Source: an uncultured Chloroflexia bacterium (GTDB lineage: Bacteria; Chloroflexota; Limnocylindria; Limnocylindrales; CSP1-4). Taken from it: a DNA stretch of 64,000 bases. Below, in pieces: positions 6,066 through 48,937 of this stretch (positions are counted from its first letter, which is position 1; each line of letters opens with the position of its first letter). A program made the translations under genes and the position numbers. Where the stretch lies: positions 1,162,871-1,226,870 of the forward strand of contig CAVZTK010000021.1 of NCBI GenBank assembly GCA_963778155.1. Direction: 5' to 3'. The notes beneath the pieces are model-generated. The model was given only the letters and a program-made list of their open reading frames with translations, had not been told where the DNA came from and searched no databases.

Positions 6066-7298
6066 GTGGAACGAGAAGCGGTCCTGGTCGGCATCGACGT
6101 CGGCACGAGCAAGGTCTGCGCCCTCATCGGCGAGGTGAGCCGCGATGGCCGGCTGACGATCATGGGCCACGGCACCGTGCCGGCGTCCGGGCTGAAGAAG
6201 GGCGTCGTCATCAACATCGACCAGACGGTCCGCTCGATCGCGGACGCGGTCGAGCGCGCCGAGCGGCTGTCGGGCTGGAAGATCGACCGGGCGTTCGTCG
6301 GGGTCGGCGGCCAGCACGTCGAGAGCCTCAACTCGCGCGGCCAGGTCGCGGTCACCGCCCATCATCGCGAGGTCACCCGCGAGGACGTCAACCGCGCCAT
6401 CGAGGTCGCCCGGGCGGTGTCGATCCCGTCCAACCGCGACGTCCTCCACGTCGAGCGGCGCGGCTTCACGGTCGACGGCCAGGAGGGCGTCAAGGACCCG
6501 CTCGGGATGAGCGCGCTGCGGCTCGAGGTCGAGACCCACATCGTCACGGCGTCCGCGACCGCGGTCCAGAACCTGACCAAGTGCGTGGCCGCGGCCGGGG
6601 TCAAGATCGACGAGCTGGTGGCCAACTCCCTGGCCGCCGCCGAGGCGGTGCTGACCGAGACCGAGAAGGAGCTCGGCGTGGCGGTCGCCGACATCGGCGC
6701 CGGGACGATCGACCTGGCGCTCTTCCAGGACGGCTCGCCGTTCCACACCCGCGTCCTGCCGGTCGGTGGCGCGAACGTCACCAATGACGTGGCGATCGGG
6801 CTCAAGACCAGCATCCAGGTCGCCGAGGAGCTCAAGATCAAGCACGGCACCTGCGACCTGCGCCAGATCGACGACGACGAGCAGATCAGCGTGTCGGTCC
6901 TCGGCGAGGACGCCGGCCGGACGGTGAGCCGGCTCGAGGTGTCCCAGATCATCGAGGCCCGGATGCGCGAGACGTTCGAGCTGCTGCGCAACGAGATCCG
7001 GGCCGCCGGGGTCGGCATGCTCCCGGCCGGGATCATCCTGACCGGCGGTGCCTCGCAGCTGGCCGGCGCGGCCGAGCTCGGCCGCGAGGTCCTCGAGATG
7101 CCGGTCCGGGTCGCCGCGCCGTCCGGCATCGGCGGGCTCGTGGACACGCTCCTCACGCCCGCCTACAGCACCAGCGTCGGCCTGCTCCAGTGGGGCGCCG
7201 CGGCGCTGTCCGCCGGCGAGCCGAACCGCTACGAGTCGGCGCCGGTCGGTGGCGGCATGGGCCGCTTGCGCGACGCGATCCGGAACATCTTCCCGTAG
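6066..7298 (+). CDS. ftsA: Cell-division protein FtsA (actin-like ATPase)
   Basis: 410 aa with VGIDVGTSKVCALIGE, DIGAGTIDLALF, ILTGGASQLAG, and a C-terminal amphipathic tail GRLRDAIRNIFP. Confidence 0.93.
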   Translation: MEREAVLVGIDVGTSKVCALIGEVSRDGRLTIMGHGTVPASGLKKGVVINIDQTVRSIADAVERAERLSGWKIDRAFVGVGGQHVESLNSRGQVAVTAHHREVTREDVNRAIEVARAVSIPSNRDVLHVERRGFTVDGQEGVKDPLGMSALRLEVETHIVTASATAVQNLTKCVAAAGVKIDELVANSLAAAEAVLTETEKELGVAVADIGAGTIDLALFQDGSPFHTRVLPVGGANVTNDVAIGLKTSIQVAEELKIKHGTCDLRQIDDDEQISVSVLGEDAGRTVSRLEVSQIIEARMRETFELLRNEIRAAGVGMLPAGIILTGGASQLAGAAELGREVLEMPVRVAAPSGIGGLVDTLLTPAYSTSVGLLQWGAAALSAGEPNRYESAPVGGGMGRLRDAIRNIFP

Positions 7299-41179: not shown

Positions 41180-42091
41180 CGGCCGCGGGTCCGACAGCGG
41201 CGGGGTCCTGTACGTCGTGGCGACGCCGATCGGGAACCTGGCCGACATCACGCTGCGGGCGCTCGAGGTCCTGCGCGACGTGCCGCTCATCGCCGCCGAG
41301 GACACGCGCCACACGCGCCGACTGCTCGACCACCACGCCATCGCGACCCGGATGACCAGCTACCACGCGCAGAGCGACGCGGGGCGGACGGCCGCGCTGC
41401 TCGAGCACCTGCGCGGCGGCGCGGACCTCGCGCTCGTCACCGACGCCGGGACGCCGTCGGTCAGCGACCCGGGAGGCGAGCTCGTGGCCGCATGGGCCGA
41501 CGAAGGCGGCACGGTCGTGCCGGTGCCCGGGGCGTCGGCCGTCCTCGCTGCGGTCGCCGGGTCGCGGGGTCGCCGGGCCACGCTGGGCGTTCGAGGGGTT
41601 CCTGCCACGGTCCGGACGCGAGCGACGCGAGCGACTGGCACGGATCGCCGCCGACGACCGCGGCACGATCCTGTACGAGGCGCCGGCGCGCGTCGCCGCC
41701 ACGCTGCGCGACCTGTCCGAGGCGTGCGGGCCGGATCGGCCCGGCGCTGTCTGTCGCGAGCTGCACCAAGCTCCACGAGTCGATCGAGCGCGGGCCGCTG
41801 GGCGAGCTGGCGGCAGCTGCCGCCGAGGGCGGCCGCATACCTGCCCGGGGCGAGTTCGCCATCGTGGTCGGTGACTGGCGTGGCGACCGACCGGCCGACA
41901 CGGCCGACCAGGAGTCTGCGCTGGCGGCCGCCCGGGCAGAGGTCGAGGCGCTCGTGGCCGCGGGAGTCGCACGTGGGGACGCCGCTCGACGGGTGGCGGC
42001 CGCCACGGGCCTGCCGCGGCGGAGCCTCTACGGTCTCGAGCCGGCCTTGTCGGATGACCGAGGGACCGCCCGGACCGAACGACGACCATGA
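41176..42091 (+). pseudogene. rsmI: 16S rRNA (cytidine1402-2'-O)-methyltransferase RsmI, 2-3 frame breaks (~41204?, ~41564, ~41764)
   Basis: [23 protein letters not shown]...[10 protein letters not shown]...[13 protein letters not shown]...[13 protein letters not shown] | [17 protein letters not shown]...ILYEAPARV | [15 protein letters not shown]. The candidate GTG 41176 overlaps the nadE stop but is out of frame with the VLYVV segment. Confidence 0.85.
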
Positions 42092-43191
42092 GCACGCTGG
42101 CCTCGTTGCCGTCCATCCTCGGCCGGACCGCCATGGTCGTCTTCGGGGTCGCGGCTGTGACGACGGCTCTCGCGTTCGGCCTCAACGCTCTCGGCGCCAG
42201 CCAGACGGTCGTGTTCGTGGTCAGCGCGGTCGCCCTGGCGGCCCTCGCGACGCTGATCGGCCAGGGGACCGACGAGCTCGGCGAGCGGTTCGGGCCGGCC
42301 ACCACGGGCATCCTCCAGTCGGCCCTGGGCAACCTCCCCGAGCTGTTCATCTCGATCTTCGCGCTGCAGGCAGGCCTGGTCGTCGTCGTCCAGACCGCGC
42401 TCATCGGGTCGATCCTGGCCAACACGCTGCTCGTGCTCGGTCTCGCGTTCCTCATCGGCGGACTGCGCCACGGGACGCAGACGTTCCATGCGCCGGCGGT
42501 GCGAACGCTGGCGACGTTGCTGCTGCTCGCCGTCGCGGCACTCGCGATCCCGACGCTCGCCACGATGCCCGGCGAACCCGACGCCGGCCACGACGTGGAC
42601 CTGAGCGCCATCGTCTCGGTCGTGCTGCTGGTGGTGTTCGTGGCCTCGATCCCGTTCTCACTCGGTGGCGGCCGCGGCGCCAGCCGCGAGCTTCGCGATC
42701 CGTCGGACGGGAAGCCCTGGCCGCTGCCGCTCGCTCTCGGCCTCCTCGTCGTCGGGGCTGCGGGTGCCGCTCTGACCTCGGACCTGTTCGTCGAGGCGCT
42801 CAAGCCGACGATGGCCAGCCTTGGCCTGTCCGAGGCGTTCGTCGGCCTCGTCGTCGTCGCCATCGCGGGGAACGCGGTCGAGAACATCGTCGGCGTCCAG
42901 GCGGCCGCGGCCGACAAGACCGATCTGGCGACCAGCCTGATCCTCAACAGCAGCCTGCAGGTCGCCATCGCGCTGACCCCGGCACTCGTGCTGATCTCGC
43001 TGATCCTCGGGACCGGCGCGCTGACCCTCGTCCTGACGCCGCTCCTCGTCGGGGCGGTCGTCCTCGCGGCCCTGCTGGCGGCAGTGATCGTGTTCGATGG
43101 TGAGAGCACATGGCTGGAGGGCCTGGCGTTGCTCGGCCTCTACGTGATCATCGCGGCAAGCGTCTGGTACGGGCCGCCGATCCATCCCTGA
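42088..43191 (+). CDS. Ca2+/H+ antiporter (CaCA/ChaA-Cax family)
   Basis: 367 aa, about 10 TM segments, two alpha-repeat motifs GNLPELF and [12 protein letters not shown] overlaps the rsmI stop (ATGA). Confidence 0.88.
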
Positions 43192-43211
43192 CGCGTCGCT
43201 CGCGCCCGGAC

Positions 43212-43232
43212 GCCGTCGGATGCGGCGACGGC
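43212..43232. terminator. Hairpin between convergent antiporter and ssb genes
   Basis: gccgtcg-gatgcgg-cgacggc in the 83-nt convergent gap. Confidence 0.35.
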
Positions 43233-43274
43233 GCGGAGGGGGTCGCGCCGCCGCCGTGGGCAGATGCAGCGGGG

Positions 43275-43766
43275 TCAGGCGGCGACCTCGGCTCCGGTCT
43301 CGGACCCGACCGCTTCGTCGGCGTCGTCGTCCTCGTCGGTCGACCCAGGGTCGAACGGCGGTTCGACGATCGGTTCGGTCGCCTGCTCGTCACCGAGGGC
43401 CGCCGCCTGGGCAGCGAGCGAATCGGCGGCCTGTTGGGCCTCGTAGTCCTTCTTCTTGCGCCCGGACAGCATCTCGACGTGCGAGGCCACGATCTCGGTC
43501 TTCCAGTGGCGGGCACCCTTGTCGTCGTCCCACGAGCGGGTCTGGAGCCGGCCCTCGATGGCGACCTGCTGGCCCTTGCCCAGGTAGCGGCCGGCGATCT
43601 CGGCCAGCCGATCCCAGGCGACCACCGGATGATATTCGGACTTCTCCTTACCGCCGCCGATGAACTCGTTGCTGGCCACGGTGAACGTCGTGACGTTCTT
43701 TCCGCTGGCGAGGCTGCGCATCTCCGGGTCGCGCGTGAGGCGCCCCGTGAGCAGGACCTTGTTCAC
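43275..43766 (-). CDS. ssb: Single-stranded DNA-binding protein
   Basis: 163 aa with an OB fold (MNKVLLTGRLTRDPEMR...VAWDRLAEIAGRYLGKGQQVAIEGRLQTRSW) and an acidic C-terminal region. Not in an rpsF-ssb-rpsR context. Confidence 0.92.
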   Translation of the reverse strand: MNKVLLTGRLTRDPEMRSLASGKNVTTFTVASNEFIGGGKEKSEYHPVVAWDRLAEIAGRYLGKGQQVAIEGRLQTRSWDDDKGARHWKTEIVASHVEMLSGRKKKDYEAQQAADSLAAQAAALGDEQATEPIVEPPFDPGSTDEDDDADEAVGSETGAEVAA

Positions 43767-44012
43767 GGTCCGATCTCCTTCCCGGTCGGCCGGCTGCGCC
43801 GATCACGACCCTGCGTCTCCGGCGGGATGACACCGGTACCCTAGCGAGCGACGATGCATCGCCACGTATCGCGCGCTTACCGCGCGCTGCACGCCGGGCG
43901 ACGACGACCGACACGGGGGAGGCCACCGCGATGACGAACAGGCACACGTCCACGCAGCGGGCCACCCTGTCCACCGACAGCTGATCGTCGACACAGCAAC
44001 GAGGCGATCGGA

Positions 44013-44903
44013 TTGGACTTCTTGCGGCGGTTCTTGGGAGGGACTGGACCGGATCCGGATCCCGCGGTCGAGATGACCGTCCCGACGCCCGCGTCGCCCG
44101 AGGCCGGCGCCAGCGTGGCACCGCTCGAACGCCTGCCCGCCTGCCCGTCCTGCGGCTACATCCTCGACCCGCCACCGGAGCGCAGCCGCCGCTGCCCGAG
44201 CTGTCGCCAGCAGATCGTGGTCCGGCATGCCGACGGACGTCCCGTCTACCTGGTCGAGAGTGCCGTGCCGATCTTCGACCGCGAACGGAAACGGGTGCTC
44301 GACCTGGCGACCTGGACGTTCGAGAGGGAGCGCTGGCTGGCGCTCGCCGATGGGGTCCATGCGCCCGCGGCGGCGCGCGAACGCCTCGCCACAGCCGAGC
44401 TGTCGAGCGAGGTGGTGGAGGCCTCCCGCTCCCTCTACCTGTCGAACGTCGAGACCGCGGTCCGCGCCGCTCGCCGCGGCAGGCGCTGGACGGAGGTCGC
44501 TCGCCAGCGCCGGCTGCAGGCCGCGACGCTGTTCGCCGAGGCCGGTTCGCCCGTCCCCGCCCCGGACGCGATCGTCGAGCTCCAGCGTGACGGGATGCTG
44601 GCCGAGCTGCGGAACCTCCAGCCCGATTACACCGACGCCGAGCTGGTGAGCGTCGGGTGCTGTCGCACGTGCCGGGCCGACGACGGCAAGGTGTTCAAGA
44701 TCGTCGCGGAGCTGCGCGAACCGAGGTTGCCGCACGTGGACTGCCCGAAGGGGCTGTGCGGCTGCGAGTGGTGGGTGGCGATGCCATCGCCCAGGAAGCG
44801 ACGCAGGACCGTTCGCCGGCGCGTCGCCGCGGAGACCTCGGCGCCCGTCGCGAGCTCGGGCGTCAGCGGCGGCACGGAGGATTTCGAGCCCGCCGAGGGT
44901 TGA
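44013..44903 (+). CDS. Hypothetical protein, N-terminal 4-Cys zinc ribbon + C-terminal CCxxC...PHxxCPxGLCxC module (paralogue 1)
   Basis: 296 aa, TTG start, high third-position GC. Clear paralogue of the 3' two-thirds of the next gene. Confidence 0.7.
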   Translation: MDFLRRFLGGTGPDPDPAVEMTVPTPASPEAGASVAPLERLPACPSCGYILDPPPERSRRCPSCRQQIVVRHADGRPVYLVESAVPIFDRERKRVLDLATWTFERERWLALADGVHAPAAARERLATAELSSEVVEASRSLYLSNVETAVRAARRGRRWTEVARQRRLQAATLFAEAGSPVPAPDAIVELQRDGMLAELRNLQPDYTDAELVSVGCCRTCRADDGKVFKIVAELREPRLPHVDCPKGLCGCEWWVAMPSPRKRRRTVRRRVAAETSAPVASSGVSGGTEDFEPAEG

Positions 44904-44931
44904 TCGGCGGCATGCCGGCTCGCCCGACCCG

Positions 44932-44962
44932 TTGACGACAGGTACCCGCCGGATGCATAAAG
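44932..44962 (+). promoter_or_regulatory. Candidate promoter for paralogue 2
   Basis: TTGACG (44932-44937), 18 nt ending in TG, then CATAAA (44956-44961). An AT-rich box in the GC-rich 156-nt gap. Confidence 0.35.
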
Positions 44963-45059
44963 GGTCCCCACCGGGGCAGGGGAAGACGGAGTCACGTCCC
45001 GCTCGTCCCGGTCTGGCGCAGCGGCGTGACTGGCACGCAGCGGACTCGGCGAGGTTCGG

Positions 45060-46596
45060 GTGATGGCGAACCAGCAGATCAAGCGATTGTGGCGGCGTCG
45101 GCCGGAGGTCGAGGAGGCCGAGTTCGAGCTTCTCCAGTCGCGCGTCCGAGCCCGGCTCCTGGGGACCGATGGCACGACTGACGAGACGCCGGCGGCCGAC
45201 GGTCAGGCGGACGACGGTGACGCCGAGGACGCCGCGGCAGCCGATGCCGACCGAGCGTCGGACGACGCGGCCGGCGGATCGGATGCGGGTGCGCGGGTCG
45301 TCCCTGTCGAGGTGACCACCTACGAGCTGCCCGATGTCGTCGTGGGGGTCATGGCGGCGCCCGGTGATCCGCTGTGGGATGTCCCGGCCAGCGTCCTGTG
45401 GCCCGAGCCGGGCGTCGAGCCAGCAGAAGCCATCGAGCCCGCAGTGGCAATCGAGCCAGCAGAAGCCATCGAGCCCGCAGCGGTGATCGAGCCCGCGGCG
45501 GCGATCCTTGCCGACACCGAGGTCGAACCCGCCGCGATCCCCGAGCCGGAAGCCGCCAGGCCGCGACGGACACGTGCCACGTCCAGGCGCGCGAAGGTCA
45601 AGGCGGTCGCGAAACCGACGGCCCGCTCCCGCTCCGCCGCGACGGCCAGCTCCCGCCGCCGCGATGGTCCCCGCGGAGGCGATTCTCGCGCCACCGGCCA
45701 CGCCGACGGTCGACGCGACGGCAGCGGTGGCCGATGCGCCGATCGACGTGACCGAACCAGCTTCTGCGCCCTCTCTACCCGACCCGGTGCCCGCTCGCCC
45801 GCGCCGGTCTGGGTCGCCACGACGGTCGGGCGTCGGGACTGCCAGCCGTCCGCACGTCGCCGCGTCGACTCCCTATTGTCCGTACTGCGCTCTCCTGCTC
45901 GACCCGGCGCCCGAGTCCAGTCGCCGCTGCCCACGCTGTCGCGAGCGGATCGTCGTCAAGCGGGTCGATGGGCGCGCGATCTACCTGACCGAGGGGGCCG
46001 TGCTGATCTTCGAGGCCGAACGGCGTCGGATGGCGAACGCCGGCCGCTGGAGTCGGGAGCGGGCGCGGTGGCTGAAGGTCGCCACTGCCGTCGACGCGCC
46101 ACCCGAGCGCGTCGCCAGGCTTGCCGGTGCGCCCCTGTCGGAGCAGGTCGTCGCCGCGTCACGGGCGCTGTACATGACCACGGTCGACCGGTCGTTCCGG
46201 ACCGCCAAGCGGGAGCGCCGCTGGGTCGACGCCTCGCGGATCAAGCGTGAGCAGGCTCTGGTCCTGTCCAGGATGGCCGGATCGCCGAACCCGCCGCCCG
46301 AGGACGCGGTCCTGGCCCACCGCGAAGCTGCAGCCGCGTCTCTCCACGGCGTCGCCGAGATGAGCCGCGACGCCGAGCTCGTCAGCCGGCGCTGCTGCGA
46401 GGTCTGCGACGCGGACGATGGCCAGACGTTCCGGATCGCGTCCGAGCTCAGGACGCCGCGACTCCCGCACGCCGGCTGCCCGAGGGGCCTGTGCCGGTGC
46501 GACTGGTTCCTGGCCGTCCGCGACCAGTCGATCGTCCGTCGCAACCTCCGCCGCCGAGCCCGGGCCGAGGTCTCGGCTTCGGGTCAGGGGACCTAG
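45060..46596 (+). pseudogene. Hypothetical protein, paralogue 2: long acidic/Pro-Ala repeat N-terminal region + zinc ribbon + Cys/His module; frame break near 45661 (or two genes)
   Basis: Coding signal (third-position GC) follows frame 0 from 45060 to ~45660, then frame 1 from ATG 45664 to 46596. The conserved core is 45850-46560. Confidence 0.6.
45411..45500 (+). repeat. In-frame 18-nt tandem repeat (about 5 units) encoding (A/V)IEPAx
   Basis: gcc atc gag ccc gca gtg / gca atc gag cca gca gaa / gcc atc gag ccc gca gcg / gtg atc gag ccc gcg gcg. A 28-nt string, gagccagcagaagccatcgagcccgcag, occurs twice. Confidence 0.8.
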
Positions 46597-46603
46597 TCCC
46601 GGG

Positions 46604-47035
46604 ATGGCGTCCGAGGCCGTGCCGCGCGACGGGCTCGATGCGGCGCCCCTGGTCGAAGCTCTCGACTTCCTCTATACGCCGAGCCGGGATGTCGCCGCGG
46701 ACACGGCAGAGGTGACAGCAGCTCTCGGTGGTCGGGTGGTGTTCGCCATCGAGGACGGCGGCGTCAGGGTCGCGATGATCGACGTCGCGGGCGCGCCACG
46801 CCTGCTCCTGACCGACCATCTCGACGGCGATCGACCCGTCCTCGTCTATCGGGTCGCGGACCTGCGGGCAGCGACGGCCGATCTCGCGCGACGGGGCTGG
46901 ACGCCCGAGCGGTCGCTCGAGATCCCGCAGGGCCCATGCAGCTCGTACCGATCGGGCGGTGGCCACCGGATCGCGCTGTACGAGTCGAGCCGGCCGCAGG
47001 TCCTGGACCACTTCGAAGGTCGGCGCGACTTCTGA
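46604..47035 (+). CDS. Hypothetical protein, possibly glyoxalase/VOC-fold
   Basis: 143 aa from ATG 46604. Pattern ...VVFAIEDGGVRVAMIDV...LLLTDHLDGDRPVLVYRV...GHRIALYE suggests paired beta-alpha-beta modules. Weak assignment. Confidence 0.4.
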   Translation: MASEAVPRDGLDAAPLVEALDFLYTPSRDVAADTAEVTAALGGRVVFAIEDGGVRVAMIDVAGAPRLLLTDHLDGDRPVLVYRVADLRAATADLARRGWTPERSLEIPQGPCSSYRSGGGHRIALYESSRPQVLDHFEGRRDF

Positions 47036-47251
47036 TCCAGCGCCCCGGACGTCATCCGTCTGGGCGCCGGCCCCGGCGGTCCGGGCCCTGGCGGGTCGGC
47101 GGGTCGGCGGGGCCGGCAGGTGCCTGGCGGGCATCGCGACGCTAGCAGACGGTCCTGCACTGCCGATCGATCGGGGATGCACGGGCGCTCGACCGCGGAT
47201 GCACCGCCGATCATCCGGGGCGTCACGCAGCCGAGCCGTGCGCCCGAGGGG

Positions 47252-48937
47252 TCAGCCGGTCGCGATCCCGCGCTTCTCCGGTGGCGTGCCCGGGCCGTCG
47301 CTCCGCCGGCCGCCTGCCGACGGGCCATCCGCACTCGTCCGTCCCAGGTCGACGAGCCCGTGTGCGTCGGACGCCAGCGTCTCCGTCGAGGCGGACTCGA
47401 TCCGGCTGCGGCGGGAGCGACGCTGCGTCTCGACGTGTGGCTCGGTCATGGCGAGGACCGTCTGGTCGGGCGTCGGTGCCTCGTTCGTATAGAGGTCGCA
47501 GAACAGCGTCACCAGCTCCGGGTCGAACTGCGTGCCGGCGTTCGCCTTGAGCTCGACGATGGCCGCTTCGTGGGAGATCGCCGGCTTGTACGGGCGATCG
47601 TGGGTCATCGCGTCGTAGGCGTCGGCGATGGCGACGATCCGAGCGCCGAGCGGGATCTCGTTCGCCCGCAGGCCGTACGGGTAGCCATGTCCGGCGTAGC
47701 GCTCGTGATGGTGGAGGATGATCGGGACCGCCTCCTTGAGCGCCGCCGCGTATTCGAGGATGACCTGGCCGATCCGCGGGTGCTGGACGACGGTGCGCCA
47801 CTCGGCCGAGGTCAACGGCGCCGGCTTGTCGAGGATCTCATCGGGCACGGCGACCTTGCCGACGTCGTGGAGCAGGGCGGCGATCTTGATGCGATCGACC
47901 TCGGCGTCGGGTAGCTGGAGCTGGCGTGCCATGTCGACCACGATCGCGGCGATCAGGGCGGACGGCTGGCCACGATAGTGGGGGAGCGGCGCGATGAACG
48001 AGGTCAGCGTGTCCGTGGCGGCGTCGCGGGCGCGCAGGCCGAGCTCCATCGCCCGGGCGCGACCGCTGTCCGAGATCGGTGCCCGCGGGACGCGCGCGTC
48101 CTCGTCGGGCTCCTCGAAGATGTAGGTCTGGTTCCGCCCGAGCGATTTCGCCGAGTACATCGCGGCGTCGGCATCGCGCACCAGGTTCTCCATGCGGAGC
48201 TGCTGGCCGGACCCGCCGACGATCCCGATCGAGATCGTGACCGACAGGTTCGCGTTGCCGTCGACGATGAAGCGGCAGCGCTCGACGAGCTTGCGCAGCT
48301 TCTCGCTCAGCGCTGCGCCCTCCTCGACGTTCGTCTCGGTCAGGATCAGCATGAATTCCTCGCCGCCATACCGGCCGATGAGGTCGCTGGCACGCAGGTT
48401 CTCGGCGAGGGTCTGCGCGACGCCGCGCAGCACGACATCGCCGCTGGCGTGGCCGTAGGTGTCGTTGACCGCCTTGAAGTGGTCGATGTCGACGAAGGCG
48501 ACGCACAGCGGCCGTTCGTAGCGGGATGCGCGCTCGACCTCGGCGAACAGGGCGGCCGTCAGGGCCTGGCGGTTGACGACGCCGGTGAGACGGTCGACGG
48601 TCGCCCGGTCGTGGGTGTCGGCCAGTGCGGTCGAGATGCCGTTGATGGCCGCCGCCAGGCGCGCCTCGAGACCGCCGCCATCGCTCGGCACGGACACCGT
48701 GTAGTCGCCGCCTGCGATGCGCTCCGCGGCCCTGACCAGGCGCCCGAACCGGATGCGGACGATGATCCACGACAGGGTCGCGGTGAGGCCGATGCCGATC
48801 AGCACCGCGGTCGCCGCGGCGGCCTCGGCACGGTCTCCGCCGTCGACCCACGACGAGGTGAGTCCGGGGTTCGTCAGGATGAGGAGGGCGACAGCGACCG
48901 GGGCCGCGATCGCCAATACCCCCAGCAGGCGCATCAC
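47252..48937 (-). CDS. Membrane-anchored HAMP-GGDEF-HD-GYP protein (c-di-GMP synthase/phosphodiesterase)
   Basis: 561 aa, two N-terminal TM segments, HAMP-like linker, GGDEF domain with RYGGEEFML plus an RxxD-like I-site context, then HD-GYP (LLHDVGKV, HHHERYAGHGYPYGL). Confidence 0.9.
   Translation of the reverse strand: MMRLLGVLAIAAPVAVALLILTNPGLTSSWVDGGDRAEAAAATAVLIGIGLTATLSWIIVRIRFGRLVRAAERIAGGDYTVSVPSDGGGLEARLAAAINGISTALADTHDRATVDRLTGVVNRQALTAALFAEVERASRYERPLCVAFVDIDHFKAVNDTYGHASGDVVLRGVAQTLAENLRASDLIGRYGGEEFMLILTETNVEEGAALSEKLRKLVERCRFIVDGNANLSVTISIGIVGGSGQQLRMENLVRDADAAMYSAKSLGRNQTYIFEEPDEDARVPRAPISDSGRARAMELGLRARDAATDTLTSFIAPLPHYRGQPSALIAAIVVDMARQLQLPDAEVDRIKIAALLHDVGKVAVPDEILDKPAPLTSAEWRTVVQHPRIGQVILEYAAALKEAVPIILHHHERYAGHGYPYGLRANEIPLGARIVAIADAYDAMTHDRPYKPAISHEAAIVELKANAGTQFDPELVTLFCDLYTNEAPTPDQTVLAMTEPHVETQRRSRRSRIESASTETLASDAHGLVDLGRTSADGPSAGGRRSDGPGTPPEKRGIATG

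Follow-up and report, generated by a model that had tools for sequence, protein, structure and literature searches.

Two adjacent genes at positions 44013–46596 of a 64,000-nucleotide window, by which we mean the whole stretch of DNA analysed here, encode what we read as a short and a long zinc protein of a family whose records in the databases searched are, with one exception, Chloroflexota. We see this family as a cellular branch, outside phages, of the MuF fold known from tailed phages, and its members would bind nucleic acid or a protein partner together with a DUF6812 protein. We give this reading as a whole a probability of roughly 0.5. The window, from an uncultured soil bacterium of the Chloroflexota (Limnocylindria), is a 72% GC piece of a contig belonging to a metagenome-assembled genome (MAG) of 3.55 Mb that is 65.6% complete.

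Paralogue 1, the short form, occupies 44013–44903 on the plus strand and begins at a TTG codon, a start backed by the family consensus MxFLRRLFG, to give a protein of 296 residues (P0001). It is ordered as a conserved N-terminal peptide (MDFLRRFLG), an acidic Pro-rich linker, a zinc ribbon (C44, C47, C61 and C64; 44142–44204, plus strand), a basic helical bundle, a MuF-like Cys/His module (approximately residues 185–258; 44565–44786, plus strand, placed by Foldseek against BFVD and by hhalign) and a KR-rich tail, the module itself reading helix, strand, CCxxC, DG..F, PRLPH..C....C.C, strand. Paralogue 2, the long form, lies on the same strand in two frames. Its N-terminal part (frame 0, 45063–45637, from an ATG at 45063) has the N-terminus seen in intact relatives and comprises a conserved MANQQIKRLWRRRPEVEEAEFELLQSRV peptide and then an acidic Ala/Pro/Glu-rich linker with 18-nucleotide (six-residue) repeats at 45411–45506, while its core (frame 1, 45638–46596) holds the zinc ribbon (about 45877–45939), the helical bundle, the MuF-like module (about 46300–46521) and a tail, RRNLRRR, that is typical of long forms. 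A sequence-only reading of this DNA had called the two genes paralogous at 40–45% identity by eye, which BLASTP bears out at a slightly higher value (47% over 247 residues, E = 8e-73), and the zinc ribbons and the CCxxC...PRLPHxxCPxGLCxCxW module are read in the paralogues exactly as it quoted them. The 208-residue core carries a net charge of +9 in the short form and +12 in the long form, with an isoelectric point of 9.3–9.6, and the linkers are acidic, with net charges of −3 to −16, the last value being that of the long form in the window.

Neither paralogue had a match over threshold in Pfam, NCBIfam, PADLOC or PHROGs, and a profile of the family matched no sequence in the PDB, so the earlier description of an uncharacterised family holds. 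A word-indexed search returned 86 homologues, none with a Pfam domain, and none of the eight long forms scanned (490–761 residues) contained a known domain. A hidden Markov model (HMM) search of 1.84 billion representatives of 50%-identity clusters gave 1206 matches at E ≤ 1e-3, 163 of them at E ≤ 1e-30, and a pattern search across 185,579 species genomes found 114 loci. With one exception, these loci bear Chloroflexota titles: most read "uncultured Chloroflexia bacterium" or Limnocylindria/Limnocylindrales, and some have names of Anaerolinea type. Among the 79 loci, the sole title from outside the phylum belongs to a tandem pair on a contig labelled Candidatus Sulfotelmatobacter (Acidobacteriota; L012, DASPUH010000141.1), a label that is probably a binning error.

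Conservation of the Cys/His positions, which the sequence-only reading had named beforehand as a check, was found throughout, with each of the 11 residues C44, C47, C61, C64, C216, C217, C220, H241, C244, C249 and C251 kept in 163–165 of 165 full-length relatives, and W108, P240, L239, W159 and W253 likewise kept. Judged by this conservation, the Cys/His motifs are far from chance. Two forms run through the family, alike in having a disordered acidic linker, a zinc ribbon of four Cys, an Arg/Trp-rich basic bundle of helices, the Cys/His module and a tail rich in Lys and Arg. Short forms, of about 300 residues, start with the consensus given above, have an acidic linker of about 45 residues and end in WW.A....KKRRR. 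Long forms, of 400–760 residues, start with M..(L/M)..LLR.(K/R)P..DEAE(W/F).L.Q.R...RL, have an acidic low-complexity linker of 150–450 residues and end in W(D/Y)LA.RD....RRYLRRR. The state changes between short and long only five times on a tree of 162 tips, and the duplication is therefore old; two copies stand within 7 kb of each other in 29 of 78 loci.

The resemblance to MuF proteins comes out most clearly in structure predictions. The AlphaFold2 model of paralogue 1, made from 84 sequences, has a mean predicted local distance difference test score (pLDDT) of 87, with values above 94 for residues 40–255, and consists of the ribbon, a beta-hairpin, five helices and then a small strand/helix/strand module bearing the Cys/His residues. 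Searched with Foldseek against the PDB and BFVD, this full-length model gave nothing below E = 0.07, its best BFVD match being, weakly, a "minor capsid protein"; the top PDB matches, the SET-domain methyltransferases AKMT and SMYD, were rejected at a root-mean-square deviation of about 15 Å. The fragment of residues 128–262, folded by AlphaFold from 109 sequences (pLDDT 93), was more telling. Among its top 50 Foldseek matches in BFVD, all named proteins were of MuF type (minor capsid protein, "phage head morphogenesis domain", GpF-like, MuF-like) except one "Portal protein" and one ADP-ribosyltransferase, with probabilities of up to 1.00 and 72–80 aligned columns at 2–3.3 Å. The likeness to Mu-F/SPP1 gp7 that the sequence-only reading had noted for the last module thus holds at the level of the fold.

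A profile–profile comparison weakly supports the same likeness. Aligned by hhalign with a target of 15 PF04233 domains from Chloroflexota genomes, the family profile scored 34.6 (P = 4.4e-4) over residues 185–236, compared with 11.8 ± 2.0 (maximum 16.5) for 40 column shuffles and 15.5 for the reversed alignment, and the aligned residues correspond to the PF04233 stretch RTE helix, strand, CxxC, DG..F. We read the C-terminal module as having the MuF fold and, probably, as a remote homologue. The family nevertheless lies outside PF04233, from which its N-terminal half, the pattern of its ligands and its gene surroundings all set it apart. PF04233 itself has no match at E ≤ 1e-5 in the genome from which the window comes, and 13 other Chloroflexota genomes have one.

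When the flanking open reading frames (ORFs) of the 79 loci were clustered, a single recurrent neighbour appeared, in 35 loci. This neighbour, N1, is a protein of about 210 residues with two DUF6812 (PF20660) repeats, and its gene is typically followed on one strand by the long and then the short gene, whereas in the window the short gene precedes the long one between ssb and a GGDEF gene. In one sub-lineage, the representative proteins P0103 and P0100 join N1 to the long form within a single frame, the Met at which long forms usually start being replaced (..PEIRGLL..); a genuine fusion of the genes or the merging of two gene calls could explain them. Fusions among the 79 loci were rejected, the long "N1" ORFs there being over-extended starts, and P0103 and P0100 are the only cases. 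A Pfam survey of 128 flanking genes, for which the 25 most frequent of 117 matched families were listed, describes surroundings that are mainly signalling and metabolic, trpE and serS among them.

The pair is a patchy accessory gene set that evolves faster than its flanks. Together with a 143-residue ORF (46604–47035, plus strand), it fills an interval of about 3.5 kb between ssb and the GGDEF gene, and this interval is short in same-genus genomes that have none of the three. Within the GTDB family of the host, 12 of 61 genomes have the protein family (single-protein query, all candidates scored); in four other families of the class it was not found with an alignment query for which 15 of 30–58 candidates per genome were scored. 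The genome search starts with a lossy first look, and absences mean "not found". In loci L005–L007, paralogue 1 is 53–56% identical to that of the window, compared with 81–98% for nadE, ssb and purA, chaA and the GGDEF gene diverging more than these three; because paralogue 1 diverges far more than nadE, ssb and purA within a shared block, we regard the pair as a fast-evolving accessory insert.

Given the charge of the proteins, their fold and the linkage of their genes, our best guess is that they may form a basic duo that binds nucleic acid or a partner. In such a scheme, two or three zinc ions would be held by the ribbon together with the seven ligands conserved in the MuF-like module, and the zinc sites would make a positively charged surface rigid. 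This surface might bind an oligomeric partner or, as reported for gp7, nucleic acid (DNA or RNA) with no strong preference for sequence. The two forms would act as a hetero-pair, and the acidic linker and N-terminal peptide could recruit the double barrel of DUF6812, or shield the basic core up to that point.

Several points weigh against this account. We infer nucleic-acid binding from charge, the zinc modules and the analogy with gp7. The Foldseek E-values of the fragment are weak (0.012–1, the best being 0.012), because the shared module spans only about 75 residues, and the hhalign probability is only 33%; with both figures weak, convergence on a helix and a zinc-knuckle motif may explain the likeness. 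Neither paralogue is matched by the PF04233 HMM at E ≤ 1, and, compared with MuF, the family shows one additional Cys (CC) and four inserted residues, PKGL, ahead of CxC (H..C....C.C). As for the partner, the N1 homologue of the host genome is some 1 Mb distant from the pair on the contig of the window (G000:C21:171555–172064), and the co-occurrence of the family with N1 (both in 10 of the 61 genomes, the family only in 2, N1 only in 8 and neither in 41) is a count that ignores the relatedness of the genomes.

Other explanations were weighed against the same evidence. The duo and the DUF6812 protein could constitute a conflict or anti-phage module in which a MuF-like domain captured by the host binds portals, or DNA, whether incoming or packaged, and thereby interferes with head assembly or genome delivery. 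MuF proteins do bind portals (PMC6316719), and the MuF-like fold, the patchy occurrence noted above, the insertion/deletion behaviour between conserved neighbours, a divergence much faster than that of most flanking genes and the frequency of tandem paralogues would all suit such a role. We consider it unlikely nonetheless, as the proteins contain no nuclease, ATPase or other effector domain, PIN (2 of 128) is the sole family of defence or mobile type among the 25 most frequent listed for the flanks, and nothing in PADLOC-DB 2.0 matches either form, their DUF6812 partner or the 143-residue ORF at E ≤ 1. A bolder version, which we hold to be rather improbable, is that this lineage took the MuF fold into a three-gene chromosomal module (double-DUF6812, long, short) and uses its affinity for portals or DNA ends in a cellular role, likeliest as an anti-phage decoy or sensor that would intercept the assembly of heads or the delivery of genomes. 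Comparably doubtful is a place for the duo at the end of a second-messenger or two-component pathway, as its output or its adaptor, with the DUF6812 barrel sensing, for example, cyclic di-GMP and signalling to the basic zinc proteins, which would then bind DNA or another target. The flanks are rich in histidine kinases (8 of 128), response regulators (5), cyclases (5) and GGDEF proteins (3), and a GGDEF-HD-GYP fusion gene (47252–48937, minus strand) lies 220 bp downstream of the insert in the window. Signalling genes are, however, common in these genomes, the flank counts are raw numbers, and DUF6812 is without a known ligand-binding motif; moreover, the GGDEF gene keeps its place, beside ssb, in same-genus genomes without the pair, and its adjacency is for that reason coincidental.

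Two further explanations have very little to recommend them. The fold of the C-terminal module would be expected of ordinary MuF genes in a prophage head-morphogenesis remnant, yet neither gene matches PF04233, portal, terminase and capsid families are all missing from the 25 most frequent listed for the flanking genes, a search of IMG/VR found no copy of the family, and clear constraint has kept the zinc-ribbon architecture and the short/long pairing in many genomes. Equally improbable is a system of DNA metabolism in which the pair and the neighbouring ssb act together. This ssb (43275–43766, minus strand; PF00436, E = 1.5e-33) had been described as a stand-alone gene placed divergently from the pair; the divergent placement from paralogue 1 stands, but the gene is no orphan, since two ssb genes were present in each of the five genomes checked, among them one (G346) without the family. 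Linkage to ssb across genomes, the other check named beforehand, fails: ssb adjoins the pair in only 5 of 79 loci, namely the closest relatives L003–L007, which form one syntenic block (nadE, rsmI, antiporter, ssb, pair, ORF143, GGDEF/HD-GYP, purA). L004 retains this block only from ssb onwards to purA, and there about 2 kb separate ssb and the pair. The 74 other loci yielded no adjacent ssb; one of them (L017) has a distant, 46%-identical SSB match about 4 kb away, and in G350 the family lies about 220 kb from the nearer ssb. In two other species of the genus (G269 and G308), ssb and the GGDEF gene stand about 0.3–1.1 kb apart with neither the pair nor ORF143 between them. Because ssb keeps its place without the pair and two ssb genes occur regardless of the family, the neighbourhood is coincidental, and adjacency in a single genome misled here.

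Returning to the preferred reading, a cellular family of zinc proteins related to MuF, the split of paralogue 2 between two frames needs an explanation. The sequence-only reading had given this protein an acidic extension of about 200 residues, which is genuine for the family and lies here in another frame than the core. Codon-position GC across the gene places the coding frame at 0 as far as about 45600 and at 1 beyond about 45850, and an imperfect 24+22-nucleotide tandem duplicate (45616–45664, plus strand) contains the change. Intact relatives have a single ORF starting with the peptide MANQQIKRLFRRRPEIDEAEFELLQSRV, of 544 residues in L004 and 490 in P0066, both with the N-terminus MANQQIKRL.RRRPE..EAEFELLQSRV; since these relatives carry one ORF with the same N-terminus, the acidic extension belongs to the protein and the copy in the window is interrupted. 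The closest relative, L003, has 22 nucleotides fewer at the duplicate and keeps the frame there, but has a different break farther along the same gene. The rsmI gene in the window (41200–42000) is also broken, losing its frame after about 124 well-conserved residues, and is in two pieces in L003 as well, a pattern that fits indel errors of long-read assembly. With rsmI frame-broken in the window and L003 broken elsewhere in the same gene, an assembly error is the most likely cause of the break in paralogue 2, rather than gene decay. The position of the break in a 22-nucleotide duplicate, unlike the usual homopolymer error, speaks against this, and a real mutation could be the cause. A programmed frameshift was rejected, as the ORF of L004 is intact with a different local sequence and L003 is in frame at the site.

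The remaining features of the region add context. The neighbours of the pair in the window are nadE, rsmI, the antiporter, ssb, the GGDEF-HD-GYP gene and purA. An Rfam scan of 42900–47400 gave no match, and a promoter and terminator scan gave no useful result. The 143-residue ORF accompanies the pair in L003, L006 and L007 and, like the pair, is absent from same-genus genomes; it has no Pfam, PADLOC or PHROG match and by eye resembles a single beta-alpha-beta module of the glyoxalase/VOC type. Beside the DUF6812 gene of the host genome (L082, 68–691) is a 207-residue open frame consisting almost wholly of PVAPVA/PVGPVG repeats, which may be a repeat-driven open frame. The other ssb of the host genome is at G000:C21:1345889–1346188, the ssb type of the window being the second-best PF00436 match in each genome checked. 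At L108 (G239:C3:1278800–1287800), in the same genus, the ssb orthologue is split into 1959–2099 and 6921–7184, about 4.8 kb apart, as if inserted into.

A constrained cellular family that retains a MuF-like zinc module with all else exchanged points to a conserved functional core of MuF, and it offers a phage-free setting for testing what that core binds. About one third of tailed phages have a MuF domain, and the domain is the carrier of many phage-delivered toxins, yet its own activity is still unknown (PMC5576092). If the decoy or sensor proposal were true, it would represent a kind of defence not seen before and the first functional handle on the domain. The pair also adds a conserved, unstudied gene set and its DUF6812 partner to the sparse knowledge of Limnocylindria, an abundant uncultured class of soil and freshwater.

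Among known proteins, stand-alone zinc-ribbon proteins (DUF1610, RNA polymerase subunit P-type) share with the family an N-terminal CPxC-x13-CPxC ribbon followed by a beta-hairpin, and one source labels a homologue of the family DUF1610. The Pfam and NCBIfam matches to them are sub-threshold, however (E = 0.0015–0.04, with cut-offs above 60 bits), and the ribbon makes up only about 10% of the protein here. The comparison with MuF and SPP1 gp7 (PF04233) reaches further into the C-terminal part. SPP1 gp7 is a portal-bound, DNA-binding protein of which a few copies enter the capsid and which supports the start of infection (PMC6316719, PMC5512222, PMC5576092), and muf genes adjoin portal genes (PMC5576092), whereas the present family is a chromosomal short/long duo for which no portal family was among the 25 most frequent listed for the flanks and no prophage or viral contig was found. 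The N-terminal half is likewise unlike MuF, with a zinc ribbon, another helical bundle and acidic linkers, and of the MuF motif series (RTE helix, CxxC, DG, HPxCRC) the family has CxxC, DG and P.H..C, whereas RTE becomes (H)RE and CRC gives way to C....C.C. What the two have in common is the last 75 residues or so, in which a helix, a strand, a CxxC knuckle, DG..F/V, P.H..C..C and a final strand follow one another, the motifs keeping the same order in the profile alignment, and both gp7 and the present family are basic proteins.

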